This document shows positions 3,202 to 11,035 of a DNA stretch of 39,458 nt, in pieces (position 1 is the stretch's first letter; each line of letters opens with the position of its first letter). This DNA is from Gemmatimonadota bacterium (GTDB lineage: Bacteria > Latescibacterota > UBA2968 > UBA8231). The position numbers and the translations under genes were made by a program. The notes beneath the pieces were generated by a model. It saw only the letters and a list, made by a program, of their open reading frames with translations. It was not told the origin of the DNA and did no database searches. The stretch is from NCBI GenBank assembly GCA_038153405.1, contig JAYOYH010000045.1, forward strand, positions 1 to 39,458, in the 5' to 3' direction.

Positions 3202-4563
3202 TTACGGCCGGTGCGTTCCGGCGCGCGAGGTTGGCAGCGGCAGGATCCATTCGGCCCGGGCTAGGCCGTAGTCCACTTGGGCCAGGTCGCGGGTGGGATC
3301 GATCAGTGGGAAATAGGGGCGGCCGTTGAGCGAGCATTCGACGCGCGCGTATACGGCTATCGCCGCGTCGCTTGGTCGCCGCTCGACATTGGAGAGAAAG
3401 CGCGCGAACTGGGCGATCATGTGGGGGCGTCCACCCATTTTTTCGGATTGGCGCTCGGTCAGGTACTTGCGCGGATGAACGCGCCAGCGCTGACCGGTAG
3501 TCGATTCTTCCAAAAGGAAAGACGATCGACAGGTCTTGTCGCGCAGCTTCATATGCCAGGCGAAGCGATGGCCTTCCTCGCTCCAGCTAGGATTGCCCGG
3601 GTAGAGCCAGTGGCGCAGCGGCAGCACCACCTGCAGCGCGAGGTAGGCCATGAGCAAGGCGGTGACGACCGAGCGGGAGCGCGGCGCAGTCATCTCCCGC
3701 GCCGGCTGGTCGAGCGGCACCGGCCAACGCAGCAGCGCGCGCGGCCAAGAGGGCGATAAGAACAGCAGGCTCAGGGCCGCGCCCAAATAGGGGAAAGAGC
3801 CAATGGAAAAGATCTGGCTGTTGATGAGGTGAAATGCCAGCAAAGCCGCTAGCATACCAGCGCGCGTTCGCTGCCACAGCAGCAGCGGAACGGCGCATAG
3901 GTCGATCAGCAGTCCAGCGTAGCTGAAGGCGTAGGCCGCCGCCGCGCTGTCGAGCAGCCCGGAAAGAGGGGGCAGGTAGAGGCTGTCCGGCAGCCACTGC
4001 CGCATGGGCCAGCCGCGCAGCCAGTCGGCGTTGAGCTTGGCGATGGCGCCGTAGAAATAGACTAGCCCGATCTGGGCGCGCAAGATCCACAGCGACCAGC
4101 TGGGAACGCACGGCGAGCGGATGCTCGGGAAGAGGCGCGCGTCGAGCGAGAACGCGCGGTGAGCCGGAATCCATACGAGCAGGATGCTGACGAGACATAT
4201 CAGGTAGTAGTGGTTTTGATATTGCGCTTGGTCGAGCAGAAATACGTAGGTGTAGCCGAGCGCGAAGAGCGCTGCGGCAAGCCGGTATAACAGACCAACG
4301 GCAATGCAGATGGCCAGCGCGCCCAGCGCGTAAAAATGCAGGTATATCCACGGCTGCGGCCACGGCTCGATCCAGGAAAAGCCGAGGTATTTAAAGTAAA
4401 AAACGGGTTCTACAAAGTGGAAGTCGACTTTGCCGTGGCTCAGAAAGCCATACATATCCCAGGCCATAACAAGGCCAAAGACGATGCGAAAAGAGACCAG
4501 CGAGGCCGCGTCGATAGGGGCAAAGAGGCGCTGCTGTAGCGAGCGGATCGAATGCGTCGGCAT
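3202..4563 (-). CDS. HTTM-domain / vitamin K-dependent gamma-carboxylase-like membrane protein
   Basis: Motifs YQNHYYL, YFYGAIAKLNADWL, WSEEGHRFAWHMKL, SLNGRP..LIDP; multiple TM helices. Confidence 0.88.
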   Translation of the reverse strand: MPTHSIRSLQQRLFAPIDAASLVSFRIVFGLVMAWDMYGFLSHGKVDFHFVEPVFYFKYLGFSWIEPWPQPWIYLHFYALGALAICIAVGLLYRLAAALFALGYTYVFLLDQAQYQNHYYLICLVSILLVWIPAHRAFSLDARLFPSIRSPCVPSWSLWILRAQIGLVYFYGAIAKLNADWLRGWPMRQWLPDSLYLPPLSGLLDSAAAAYAFSYAGLLIDLCAVPLLLWQRTRAGMLAALLAFHLINSQIFSIGSFPYLGAALSLLFLSPSWPRALLRWPVPLDQPAREMTAPRSRSVVTALLMAYLALQVVLPLRHWLYPGNPSWSEEGHRFAWHMKLRDKTCRSSFLLEESTTGQRWRVHPRKYLTERQSEKMGGRPHMIAQFARFLSNVERRPSDAAIAVYARVECSLNGRPYFPLIDPTRDLAQVDYGLARAEWILPLPTSRAGTHRP

Positions 4564-8766: not shown

Positions 8767-9213
8767 ATGATGCGCAGCAAGCTTCTGTGTAGCGCGCTGA
8801 CTTGGCTGATGTGGACTTCTTGCACCGGTCGAGACGGTGCGCCGGTAACGGTGCGCGACGCGTGGGTGCGCGAGCCGCCGGGTGGTCATCCGATCGCCGC
8901 GGCATATATGGTGTTGGAAAATGCTTCGGACCAAGCCGTAGCCCTGGTCGACGCCCAATCGCCCGTAGCCGAGCGGGTTGAGATTCATACTATGTCTCAT
9001 GAAAACGGGACGATGAGCATGCGACAGGTCGAACAGGTGTTGGTGCCGGCCCGCGGCAGCGCAGCGCTGCAGTCGGGCGGCTTACACCTGATGCTGATCG
9101 GCATGGAAAAGGCGCCTCGTCACGGCGACCAGGTCGAGTTGACACTGCGCTTTGGCGATGGGACCGAGCGCAGCGTGCAGGCGGCGGTGCGCAGGGGGGG
9201 CTATGGCGACTGA
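8767..9213 (+). CDS. Copper chaperone PCu(A)C
   Basis: DAWVR, AAYM, VEIHTM...MSM, GGLHLMLIG metal motif; N-terminal signal. Confidence 0.92.
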   Translation: MMRSKLLCSALTWLMWTSCTGRDGAPVTVRDAWVREPPGGHPIAAAYMVLENASDQAVALVDAQSPVAERVEIHTMSHENGTMSMRQVEQVLVPARGSAALQSGGLHLMLIGMEKAPRHGDQVELTLRFGDGTERSVQAAVRRGGYGD

Positions 9214-9844
9214 GCGTGCCCGTTTGCACCGAGTCTATCGATGTGTGCGCCTGCTGCTTATGGGGTGCGCCACGCTGGCGGCCTGTGCGCAAGAGCCGGT
9301 CGATGAGACGCCGCGCGATACGCCGGTCGCCCTGCCGCAGAATGTGCCGCCGCTGAACGACTACGGCGGTATCGGCGGCGCGTTTGCGCTGCAGGACCAG
9401 CGCGGTGAGACCTTTCAACTCGCGCAGCTAGAGGGGCGTCCGGCCATGCTCTTTTTCGGCTATACCTACTGCCCCGATATTTGTCCGGTCACCCTGTCGA
9501 AGATGGTGCGTGTCTACGAACTGTTGGAGATTGAGCCGCAGGATTTGCAGACGATTTTTATTACGGTTGATCCCGAGCGCGATACGCGAGAAAAGCTGGC
9601 CGAGTACCTGTCGTACTTTCAGGTAGATGCCGTCGGCCTAACCGGCACGCGCGAAGAGATTGATGCCGTGGTGCGTCAGTACGGCGGGCATTACGCGCTA
9701 AATAAAGAAGACGGTAAGAGCGAGTATTTTGTCGATCATTCGACCTATACCTACCTCATCGATGGGCAGGGTCGCGTGTGTTTTCTCTTTCGCCACGACG
9801 ACGAGCCCGAGTATATGGCTGCTGTGGCGCGCCAGCTCTTTTAA
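9203..9844 (+). CDS. SCO family copper chaperone, probable lipoprotein
   Basis: FFGYTYCPDICP, TVDPERD, VDHS; LAAC lipobox; start placed at ATG 9203 after a G-rich RBS. Confidence 0.92.
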   Translation: MATERARLHRVYRCVRLLLMGCATLAACAQEPVDETPRDTPVALPQNVPPLNDYGGIGGAFALQDQRGETFQLAQLEGRPAMLFFGYTYCPDICPVTLSKMVRVYELLEIEPQDLQTIFITVDPERDTREKLAEYLSYFQVDAVGLTGTREEIDAVVRQYGGHYALNKEDGKSEYFVDHSTYTYLIDGQGRVCFLFRHDDEPEYMAAVARQLF

Positions 9845-9973
9845 ATGCGTGCACTATCGATGAAAAACGCATTGCTCGCCGTGCTCAAGCTCGTCCATGC
9901 GCTCGCGTGGTTTCCGCTCAATCTGACTTTCCGCGATGCCCTGCTGCGCCTCTTCCGCAAAAAGCGCTCCTGA
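9845..9973 (+). CDS. Unannotated 42-aa small protein (37 aa if started at ATG 9860)
   Basis: ATG directly follows the SCO stop (TAAATG); MRALSMKNALLAVLKLVHALAWFPLNLTFRDALLRLFRKKRS; GC-ending codons like the neighbouring genes. Confidence 0.5.
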   Translation: MRALSMKNALLAVLKLVHALAWFPLNLTFRDALLRLFRKKRS

Positions 9974-10082
9974 GGCGTACCAAAGGCGCATTTTACGCGC
10001 TCAGTTCTTCGCGTTAAAAATTTTTCAAATGCCGGCATTGAGGGGTAGTAAATGAGGTTCGAGGCAAATATATTCCTCACAT

Positions 10083-10228
10083 GGGGTCTGCCCCGGTGCC
10101 GTCTCATGCCCGCGCGTCGCGTAACTCGATGGAATGCGCAAATGCGACTCGGTTTCACCCTTCGATGGGTTGGGCAGAGCTGAAATCTAGCACCTCGGTG
10201 TCGGAAATCACTCCGGGACAGACCGCTA
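10083..10228 (+). ncRNA. Unidentified structured non-coding RNA
   Basis: Closing helix 10085-10096/10213-10224, several internal helices and a pseudoknot; TATATT at 10069-10074 upstream and a terminator downstream; lies between convergent genes. Confidence 0.6.
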
Positions 10229-10237
10229 CTATTTAAT

Positions 10238-10287
10238 AGAACGCCGCGTCGATGAAATAGGTTGTTTTCATCGACGCGGCGTTTTGT
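10238..10287 (+). terminator. 18-bp perfect hairpin terminator overlapping the 3' end of the convergent PhyH gene
   Basis: AACGCCGCGTCGATGAAA (10240-10257) pairs with TTTCATCGACGCGGCGTT (10266-10283); T-rich sequence follows. Confidence 0.75.
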
Positions 10288-11035
10288 CTATGTAGCCGGT
10301 TTTGAGTACGCGCCGCGCTGCATCCGACCAGTCGGCTTTGTGTTCGGTCGGCAGCGGCAGGCGCTCGTGCGCGTGCGGAAAAACGCGCGTGTAGCCCAGA
10401 GAGAGCATGGCGCGCGTCTCGTCGGTGGCGTTGGGCATGGCCCCGTGCCACAGGCGCATGTCGCGCAGACACAGCGATCCGATCGGCATGGTCATGCGCA
10501 CGGCGGACATGTGCTGACTGCGCTCGTCTAGGTGGCCTATCTCGGACGCCGGGTTATCGACCAGCAAGTGCGTGCCCGGCCACAGGCGCGTGGCCCCGTT
10601 CTCTTCGGTGAAAGCGCCCAGCGGTATGTCTACGGACAGGCCGGAAACGGGCAGGGCAAAAGGCAGTTCGGGGAAGAGGGGATTGCCGTCGCGGTGTGGC
10701 GGTGCCTCATGCCCGGACTGCGGCGATACGGCGTTAATGTAGTAAAGTCCCCAGGCGATCTTATCGCCCAGCGCCGCGCGCATGATTTGCAGGGCAAACG
10801 CGTTGGCAACCAGGCGAGGGTCGACAAAGGGCATGGCGAGCGGTGGGCTCTTGAATGGCTTGCTGTGTTGGCAGGCTTGCTCGTACAGTGCGCGCACCGG
10901 ATCAATGGCCGCGCGTGGCACGGCCTCTTCGACGATGACAAAGCCGAGGTCGCGCAGCATGCGCAGGGCTTGCTGCAGGGAAGCGTCCTTTAGCTCGCCG
11001 GCTGCCTGCTCTGCGCTTGAGACCGTCAGTCGCAT
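10268..11035 (-). CDS. PhyH family dioxygenase
   Basis: PHRD, NGATRLWPGTH, RLWHGAMPN...R motifs. Confidence 0.88.
   Translation of the reverse strand: MRLTVSSAEQAAGELKDASLQQALRMLRDLGFVIVEEAVPRAAIDPVRALYEQACQHSKPFKSPPLAMPFVDPRLVANAFALQIMRAALGDKIAWGLYYINAVSPQSGHEAPPHRDGNPLFPELPFALPVSGLSVDIPLGAFTEENGATRLWPGTHLLVDNPASEIGHLDERSQHMSAVRMTMPIGSLCLRDMRLWHGAMPNATDETRAMLSLGYTRVFPHAHERLPLPTEHKADWSDAARRVLKTGYIDKTPRR

Follow-up and report, generated by a model that had tools for sequence, protein, structure and literature searches.

The window, by which we mean the whole stretch of DNA analysed (39,458 nt of contig JAYOYH010000045.1, assembly GCA_038153405.1, from a Gemmatimonadota bacterium placed by GTDB in the Latescibacterota), carries a small element in the gap between convergent genes, an arrangement that the preliminary description of this DNA had noted and that the ORF list and the Pfam assignments of the neighbours bear out. 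Seven copies of the element are compared below, five of them distinct, and they fall into three lineages: that of the window's own genome (G000), that of a genome of the same genus (G002), and a G006 type comprising a third genome of the genus (G006) and the metagenome contigs L014 to L017. The features of the locus, upstream to downstream, are as follows.

8767–9213, + strand: ORF for a PCu(A)C copper chaperone, upstream of the element
9152–9844, + strand: ORF for a SCO1/SenC protein, upstream of the element
9845–9973, + strand: 42-aa ORF directly after SCO1, its product hydrophobic and basic, with no Pfam family
10046–10051, + strand: –35-like box TAGTAA, in the conserved block GGGT(A/G)GT(A/C)AA; 7 of 7 copies
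10069–10074, + strand: –10 box TATATT, in the conserved block ATATATTCC; 6 of 7 copies, TATGTT in L016
10085–10098, + strand: 5' strand of the closing helix P1, pairing with 10211–10224; GGUCUG invariant
10099–10102, + strand: J1/2, CCGU; YCGU in all copies of the alignment
10103–10111, + strand: 5' strand of P2, CUC-A-UGCCC, pairing with 10172–10179
10116–10122, + strand: 5' strand of the tentative helix P3, GUCGCGU, pairing with 10142–10148
10123–10141, + strand: loop L3, AAnUnnAUrGAAyGCGCAA, containing the palindrome GCGC; conserved more than any other unpaired stretch, with invariant alignment columns
10142–10148, + strand: 3' strand of the tentative P3, AUGCGAC; the alternative is a small hairpin, YGC-GCAAA(U)-GCG
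10157–10170, + strand: P4 hairpin ACCC-UUCGAU-GGGU; each lineage has a hairpin here, of different sequence
10172–10179, + strand: 3' strand of P2, GGGCAGAG, partner of 10103–10111
10186–10205, + strand: P5 hairpin UCU-A-GCAC CUCG GUGU-C-GGA; covaries, loops vary
10206–10210, + strand: J5/1, AAUCA; the same in G002, AAUGUCU in the G006 type
10211–10224, + strand: 3' strand of P1; ACAGACC invariant
10225–10239, + strand: 3' tail GYUAC, invariant in 7 of 7 copies, then an A/U-rich linker
10240–10287, + strand: intrinsic terminator with an 18-bp stem and an 8-nt loop, then UUUUG; hairpin and T-run in 7 of 7 copies
Downstream of the element, – strand: ORF of 255 aa for a PhyH-family dioxygenase, its stop codon (10268–10270) inside the terminator hairpin
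Downstream of the element with PhyH, – strand: gene for an RraA-like protein (Pfam)

If each is taken from its earliest possible start, the ORFs for PCu(A)C and SCO1 overlap by 62 nt, and the true SCO1 start probably lies further downstream than the ORF listing gives. The 42-aa ORF is conserved in G002, in the G006 type and in G005, another genome of the genus, and absent in two more (G003 and G007); it may encode a small membrane protein linked to copper delivery or oxidase assembly. On the other side of the element, the 3' half of the terminator overlaps the stop codon of the convergent PhyH ORF. The ORF list holds no + strand ORF downstream of the element, nor is any ORF within it conserved, the 43- and 51-aa ORFs of the window being absent from the other lineages.

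Rereading the sequence recovered every feature that had been reported at first, each in its place. The closing helix, in its earlier outline (10085–10096 with 10213–10224), makes 11 of 12 pairs with a single C·A mismatch; inside it lie CUC-A-UGCCC/GGGCAGAG (10103–10111/10172–10179), GUCGCGU/AUGCGAC (10116–10122/10142–10148), CCC/GGG and GCAC-CUCG-GUGU; GGUUUCA at 10151–10157 is complementary to UGAAAUC at 10181–10187; and the 18-bp hairpin occupies 10240–10257 and 10266–10283. We propose that these features make up a small RNA, ~205 nt long and transcribed as a unit of its own on the + strand. Transcription would run from a sigma-70-like promoter (–10 box at 10069–10074) through a structured core of ~147 nt (10083–10229) to a strong intrinsic terminator (10240–10287). 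In the core, the long closing helix P1 would open into a three-way junction, whose branches would be P2, enclosing a conserved interior of ~60 nt, and the hairpin P5.

The element matched no known RNA family. Comparison with 4227 Rfam families gave no match at gathering score over the whole window, and relaxing the cutoff to E ≤ 10 over 9800–10350 added only three eukaryotic miRNA-family matches on the hairpin and one 13.9-bit match at 9970–10019. The original assertion that hallmarks of tRNA, tmRNA, SRP RNA and RNase P RNA are lacking was upheld: ARAGORN found 0 genes in 9800–10500, Rfam matched neither SRP nor RNase P RNA here, and SRP RNA lies elsewhere in the same genome (G000:C88). Canonical RNase P RNA lies elsewhere in G002 and G006 (299–303 bits), with further canonical copies in G009 and G015. 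As observations apart from the element, a search for RNase P RNA (RF00010) at E ≤ 0.001 came up empty in the 93%-complete assembly of G000, none was seen in G003 either, and tmRNA (RF00023) gave only sub-threshold matches in G000, most of them short; assembly gaps are the most likely reason. The 6S model (RF00013) gave no match in G000 at E ≤ 10, which is uninformative on its own because the same model finds nothing at E ≤ 0.01 in 41 genomes of the class (G000 and 40 relatives); it may be blind to this group, whose 6S RNA, if there is one, would then go unrecognised.

Homologues are few and closely related. BLAST over 61 relatives returned two weak matches, both in the same genus, at 70% identity in G002 and 71% in G006. 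A covariance model built from the three sequences and run over 76 genomes of the family found only G000, G002 and G006, and searching 151 genomes of the phylum with a second model yielded the same three and no others, all of one genus; the element is present in 3 of the 8 genomes of the genus that were searched. A pattern search with the conserved blocks added the four marine metagenome contigs L014 to L017, which the model confirmed at 114–147.5 bits, while in a collection of species genomes the pattern found only G002 and G006 plus two chance matches (L020 and L021), which were rejected, the model giving no score at the pattern site. In viral contigs there were seven pattern matches, none supported by the model, and plasmids and phages gave no BLAST match. 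Weak model matches in G096, G001, G004, G028 and G062 and at a second site in G002 (E 0.018–0.37) were also rejected, as they shared no features with the element. The G062 match (L012, G062:C63 at ~3790–3940) is a long near-perfect hairpin with ~20-bp arms beginning GGTCTGCCCGAGGG. It sits shortly before a gatB-like ORF in a genome from a different genus of the family and is unrelated to the element.

By BLAST and covariance model alike, G000, G002 and G006 have a single copy each, and all copies occupy the same site, downstream of the operon of SCO1 and the small ORF, in genomes whose SCO1 proteins are only 72–73% identical. The site is without the element in G005, G007 and G003, which have orthologous SCO1 genes (62–68% identity): in G005 the small ORF runs straight to a terminator, and in G007 and G003 SCO1 is directly convergent with the RraA-like gene. 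Since these three congeners lack it, the RNA is dispensable for the genus. On these sequence comparisons it is most likely a lineage-specific structured sRNA of a few closely related uncultured marine bacteria.

Comparison of the copies supports much, though not all, of the fold first described. P1 extends to ~14 bp, its outer pairs GGUCUG/CAGACC being invariant, as is the tail GYUAC. Every lineage has its own P2 sequence (window CUC-A-UGCCC/GGGCAGAG, G002 CCUGUC/GACAGG, G006 GUUUCAU/AUGAGAU), P4 has the equivalents CCC-AUAA-GGG in G002 and GAC-G-CU...AGGUC in G006, and P5 is an 8-bp hairpin with the loops CUCG, CAUG, CUUG and AUCCGC. In an alignment made by hand, two-sided compensatory changes occurred at 11 of 42 helix positions, two in P1, four in P2, five in P5 and none in P3; the helix table was made by hand because the model-based alignment mis-registers P2 of the window's copy. 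In the model-fitted alignment 89.1% of helix cells pair (35.5–42.0% in slid controls), the covariation score of 0.194 (0.118 when shuffled) was reached by 0 of 500 shuffles, and the count of 10 pairs with double changes was reached by 6 of 500; in both alignments pairing is favoured by the way in which P2 and P5 were registered across lineages, manually or through a structure-fitted model, and of the seven rows three are nearly identical, leaving only five distinct sequences. Read on the + strand, the hand alignment has 24 G·U cells to 4 A·C cells, so that the wobble pairs do favour the + strand as had been claimed, and the folding energies agree, since all 5 distinct copies fold into a more stable structure on the + strand than on the – strand. 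The expectation of conserved structure in relatives was thereby confirmed through the BLAST and covariance-model homologues, in which P1, P2 and P5 are kept by compensatory changes.

Thermodynamic folding gave a more uneven picture of the interior. The core of the window's copy is no more stable than chance against shuffles (z of –1.7 to –1.81 on the + strand and –2.03 on the – strand), and the whole stretch with the terminator hairpin included (–6.39) owes its value to that hairpin; the cores of the four remaining distinct copies reach –3.27 to –4.28. Mean pairing probability was 0.72–0.96 for P1 and 0.86–1.00 for P5 in 5 of 5 distinct copies, high for P2 in G000, G006 and L016 and low in G002 and L014, high for P4 only in G000 and L014, and 0.22 or less for P3, which was supported in no copy; the model fold lies 8–24 kcal/mol above each copy's minimum-energy fold. 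Among the inner helices originally listed, P2 and P5 thus stand through their covariation, while P3 shows neither covariation nor appreciable pairing probability, and the interior is less certain than was stated. P3 is best regarded as a tentative helix that may compete with the small hairpin YGC-GCAAA(U)-GCG; what speaks for it is a paired deletion in G002, where one residue is missing from each strand so that one pair is lost and the register kept, and the G006 type has mismatches there.

Two tertiary contacts were considered and rejected. The pseudoknot put forward between GGUUUCA and UGAAAUC is found only in the window's own lineage and is not conserved in the two others: 41.7% of its cells pair, within the range of slid controls (14.6–47.9%), and no compensatory change occurs, the 5' half having changed in G002 with the 3' half the same and both halves differing, non-complementary, in the G006 type. 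A 3-bp contact between L3 (GAU/CAU) and J5/1 (AUC/AUG) covaries between G000 and the G006 type, and it is broken in G002 and too short.

The putative promoter and terminator are shared by all copies. Both promoter boxes are conserved in 7 of 7, the –10 TATATT lying within ATATATTC in six (L016 carries TATGTT) and the block GGGT(A/G)GT(A/C)AA lying 16–17 nt upstream of the –10 box in all seven; DNA upstream of the –35 box does not align between copies. Against the sigma-70 consensus the –10 hexamer TATATT agrees at 5 of 6 positions and the –35 hexamer TAGTAA at 3 of 6 (TTGACA), with a spacer of 17, which is below the threshold of our consensus scan; that scan listed neither the promoter nor the terminator hairpin. 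From the end of the –10 box to the invariant GGUCUG of P1 there are 10 nt in the window (10075–10084) and 8–9 nt in the other copies, and because of this distance the RNA should begin with P1, with a transcription start predicted at ~10081–10083. The terminator stem differs in sequence between lineages, and all seven copies keep a long hairpin that, as in intrinsic terminators, is G+C-rich and followed directly by a U-run on the transcribed strand. In G002 the T-run is present only on the + strand, so the hairpin serves the + strand transcript.

Public sequencing runs provide a weak hint of expression. At least half of the sampled words were held by 17 DNA runs (marine, estuary and similar; 10 studies, with eight rows possibly the source itself). 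A relative ~95% identical to the window's copy appeared as contigs of 154, 163 and 233 nt in three metatranscriptome runs from salt marsh, which belong to three studies of the same year and possibly to one campaign. Changes in this relative include two in the P4 and P5 loops, 10175 C>G, which breaks a P2 pair, and two adjacent changes that shift the P5 mismatch by one position. Coverage by the contigs starts at 10093/10100 and extends to 10228, or in one run as far as 10328. Two of the runs have contigs that end ~7–8 nt after 10228 in letters that we take to be Illumina adapter, and one of these contigs also begins at ~10098 with what are presumably Illumina adapter letters; adapter letters at contig ends would therefore mark short inserts that end just before the terminator hairpin. 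Metatranscriptome run X23 held nothing. Four RNA runs had no contig over 9636–10037 or 10373–11100, which is uninformative by the tool's own caution, and pieces of 36–74 nt at 9445–9621 belong to the SCO1 genes of other organisms. The metatranscriptome check proposed at the outset thus yielded contigs of a close relative in three RNA libraries, a weak hint in that such contigs give neither strand, level nor true ends and RNA libraries can hold DNA.

We judge the element real on comparative evidence (seven copies, conserved promoter boxes and terminator, and covarying P1, P2 and P5), and it is very probably a selected RNA gene. The central proposal of the preliminary description, a standalone + strand non-coding RNA with a candidate promoter and a terminator of its own, is supported. 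The element belongs to no Rfam family, is no tRNA or tmRNA, contains no conserved ORF and has no same-strand gene downstream. It is most likely a previously undescribed bacterial small RNA. Judged by titles and abstracts, the papers retrieved on Latescibacter small RNAs and riboswitches have nothing about such an RNA, and within that view no non-coding RNA seems to have been described for this uncultured marine lineage.

How the RNA might act is best explained, with a probability that we put at roughly 0.4, by an independent, trans-acting structured sRNA that is recognised by a partner, most likely a protein. The invariant P1 base and tail and the conserved L3, alongside other helices and loops that drift freely, are what a protein-recognised RNA fits best. 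The variable helices would then be a rigid scaffold, and the constant parts, namely the 6-bp base of P1 with the 3' tail GYUAC and the loop L3 (AUrGAAyGCGCAAA), would be the surface that the partner recognises. L3 is accordingly named here as a candidate functional surface from its conservation, and action in trans and the kind of partner are likewise suggestions. That the RNA works through a protein rather than through base pairing or ligand binding is a tentative preference, held at clearly less than even odds. CsrA is present in 5 of 5 genomes, and a role as CsrA sponge is unlikely, GGA motifs being few and none of them conserved in loops: each core has three or four, only that in L3 lies in a loop, and it reads AGA in the five G006-type copies. 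L3 as a mimic of promoter DNA was also considered and rejected: G000 has ATRGAAYGCGC at 35 places, but each of the 12 ATAGAATGCGC sites is inside an ORF of at least 200 aa. The motif's 35 occurrences exceed the ~9 expected at equal base frequencies, and the ATAGAATGCGC sites are mostly on the opposite strand of the ORFs, a coding-sequence bias.

Base pairing in trans is the rival that survives best, and we hold it to be rather unlikely. An antisense sRNA of this kind would use L3 as seed for mRNAs encoded elsewhere, without Hfq; its own promoter and intrinsic terminator are the usual build of trans-encoded sRNAs, and L3 is conserved over 14–19 nt and would be unpaired if P3 forms. A protein partner is nonetheless favoured over antisense action because Hfq is found in 0 of 5 genomes (no match to PF17209, in assemblies 83–98% complete), because no L3 target rises above shuffles, and because the base of P1 is invariant. 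The best non-self L3 duplex over 11,723 start regions had –30.6 kcal/mol, with shuffled queries at –28.9 to –31.9, in a scan of guessed ORF starts with one loop in one genome and five shuffled queries run on a quarter of the regions; the neighbouring genes gave –13.1 to –19.5 against a background of –18.3 (sd 2.8). A selected 147-nt scaffold of several helices also exceeds what a seed needs.

Less likely again, a doubtful possibility, is that the element opens a new class of structured RNAs whose role is not antisense regulation, be they standalone ligand sensors, self-assembling RNAs or subunits of an unknown ribonucleoprotein. All that the covarying P1, P2 and P5 would do there is to hold in place the palindromic loop L3, the invariant base of P1 and the likewise invariant 3' tail.

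An improbable reading makes the element act in cis, either as a ligand-sensing leader controlling read-through antisense into PhyH and the RraA-like gene or as the processed 3' UTR of the SCO1 operon. In its favour, the structured core immediately precedes a terminator in which the PhyH stop codon is embedded, a transcript that read through would be antisense to PhyH, and the stretch from the small ORF to the RNA shows no obvious strong terminator. However, no pairing of the 3' part of the core with the 5' half of the terminator was seen by eye that could serve as an alternative fold, the terminator stem, long in every copy, has 18 bp without a mismatch in the window, the promoter boxes are conserved, and no riboswitch family matches in Rfam. 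The G006-type contig L017 weighs in the same direction, as its PhyH has decayed to a 51-aa remnant (1288–1443, + strand) that resembles the N-terminus of the window's PhyH, while the RNA, its promoter boxes and terminator and the RraA-like gene beside the remnant are intact. The earlier statement that a cis role is unlikely, which had been argued from the lack of downstream genes, thus stands in part only: no + strand gene follows, and PhyH has decayed in one lineage, but read-through would be antisense to PhyH.

More improbable still is an RNA that acts on itself, either as a small ribozyme or by self-assembly through the palindrome GCGC of L3. It would be suited by the nesting of two three-way junctions, by nucleotides that do not vary at the helix base and in the junctions, and by the conserved self-complementary GCGC (within UGCGCA in G000 and G002); against these stand the lack of any Rfam ribozyme match even at E ≤ 10, the lack of a conserved pseudoknot, and RNA-library contigs that are unbroken from 10093/10100 to at least 10228, which are uninformative on the 5' strand of P1, where their 5' ends fall.

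The patchy presence of the element at the SCO1 site (present in G000, G002 and G006, absent in G005, G007 and G003) and the inverted repeats at its ends (GGTCTG.../...CAGACC) would suit a reading in which it is no RNA gene at all: DNA in decay, left by a miniature inverted-repeat element or an insertion, with terminal inverted repeats that merely look like a closing helix. This is highly improbable. Such repeats come in many dispersed copies, whereas here there is one copy per genome and none in viral contigs, plasmids or phages; the compensatory changes of the interior helices and the 24 to 4 strand bias of G·U cells are unlike neutral decay; and between genomes whose SCO1 proteins have diverged this far, unselected DNA should no longer align. 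Finally, a very divergent housekeeping RNA (6S, Y RNA, RNase P or SRP) is hardly credible: the silence of the Rfam 6S model in G000 and across the class leaves room for it, but the element is in only 3 of 151 genomes, its 5' junction side is 4 nt with no large bubble, P2 and P5 covary into a branched fold, TROVE/Ro is in 0 of 5 genomes, and SRP RNA (in G000) and RNase P RNA (in G002 and G006) lie elsewhere.

On the evidence at hand the element is one more orphan sRNA with few representatives, of moderate interest and no surprise. A selected structured RNA in only some species of a genus is nevertheless a clean case of a young or dispensable regulatory RNA, and with its promoter, ends and fold defined it lends itself to synthesis and probing. 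It would gain in significance should it prove to sense a ligand, act as a ribozyme, assemble with itself or form the core of an unknown ribonucleoprotein.

Among known systems, 6S RNA shares with the element its size class, a long closing helix formed from the 5' and 3' ends, and an independent gene; 6S RNA is, however, rod-like, with a large central bubble open on both strands, and is present in nearly all related genomes, whereas the element has a 4-nt 5' junction strand, branches through covarying helices and is restricted to its three genomes of 151. The YrlA-type Y RNAs, which are bound by Ro/Rsr, have a long helix made of both ends, a sequence-invariant segment and a branched cap, in all of which the element would resemble them, and this is how an RNA gripped by a protein at the base of its helix is built; it differs in having no Rfam Y RNA match and no tRNA-like domain, and none of the five genomes G000, G002, G006, G005 and G003 has a TROVE/Ro protein (PF05731). 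Riboswitches and other cis leaders are set apart by a known aptamer, an ORF that follows on the same strand and an alternative pairing, and Rfam, the ORF list and inspection by eye, respectively, gave none of these. Riboswitch-controlled antisense RNAs, such as the B12-controlled one in Listeria, have a promoter, a structured core and a terminator facing a convergent gene, and the element is built alike, without a downstream ORF on its own strand; it differs in that it has no known aptamer, no antiterminator was seen, and the convergent gene has decayed in one lineage. Trans-encoded sRNAs are, like the element, intergenic, with a sigma-70-like –10 box, a structured body, a terminator with U-run, a length of ~200 nt and a narrow range, but the genomes here are without Hfq, no target stands above background, and more of the body is structurally constrained than a seed plus hairpin needs. 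The orphan RNA motifs of metagenomes of the type curated in Rfam differ in that the element matches no Rfam family and has far fewer representatives (7 copies, 5 distinct); they are of unknown function, occur only in uncultured or environmental sequences and are defined by covariation, and in these respects the element is like them.
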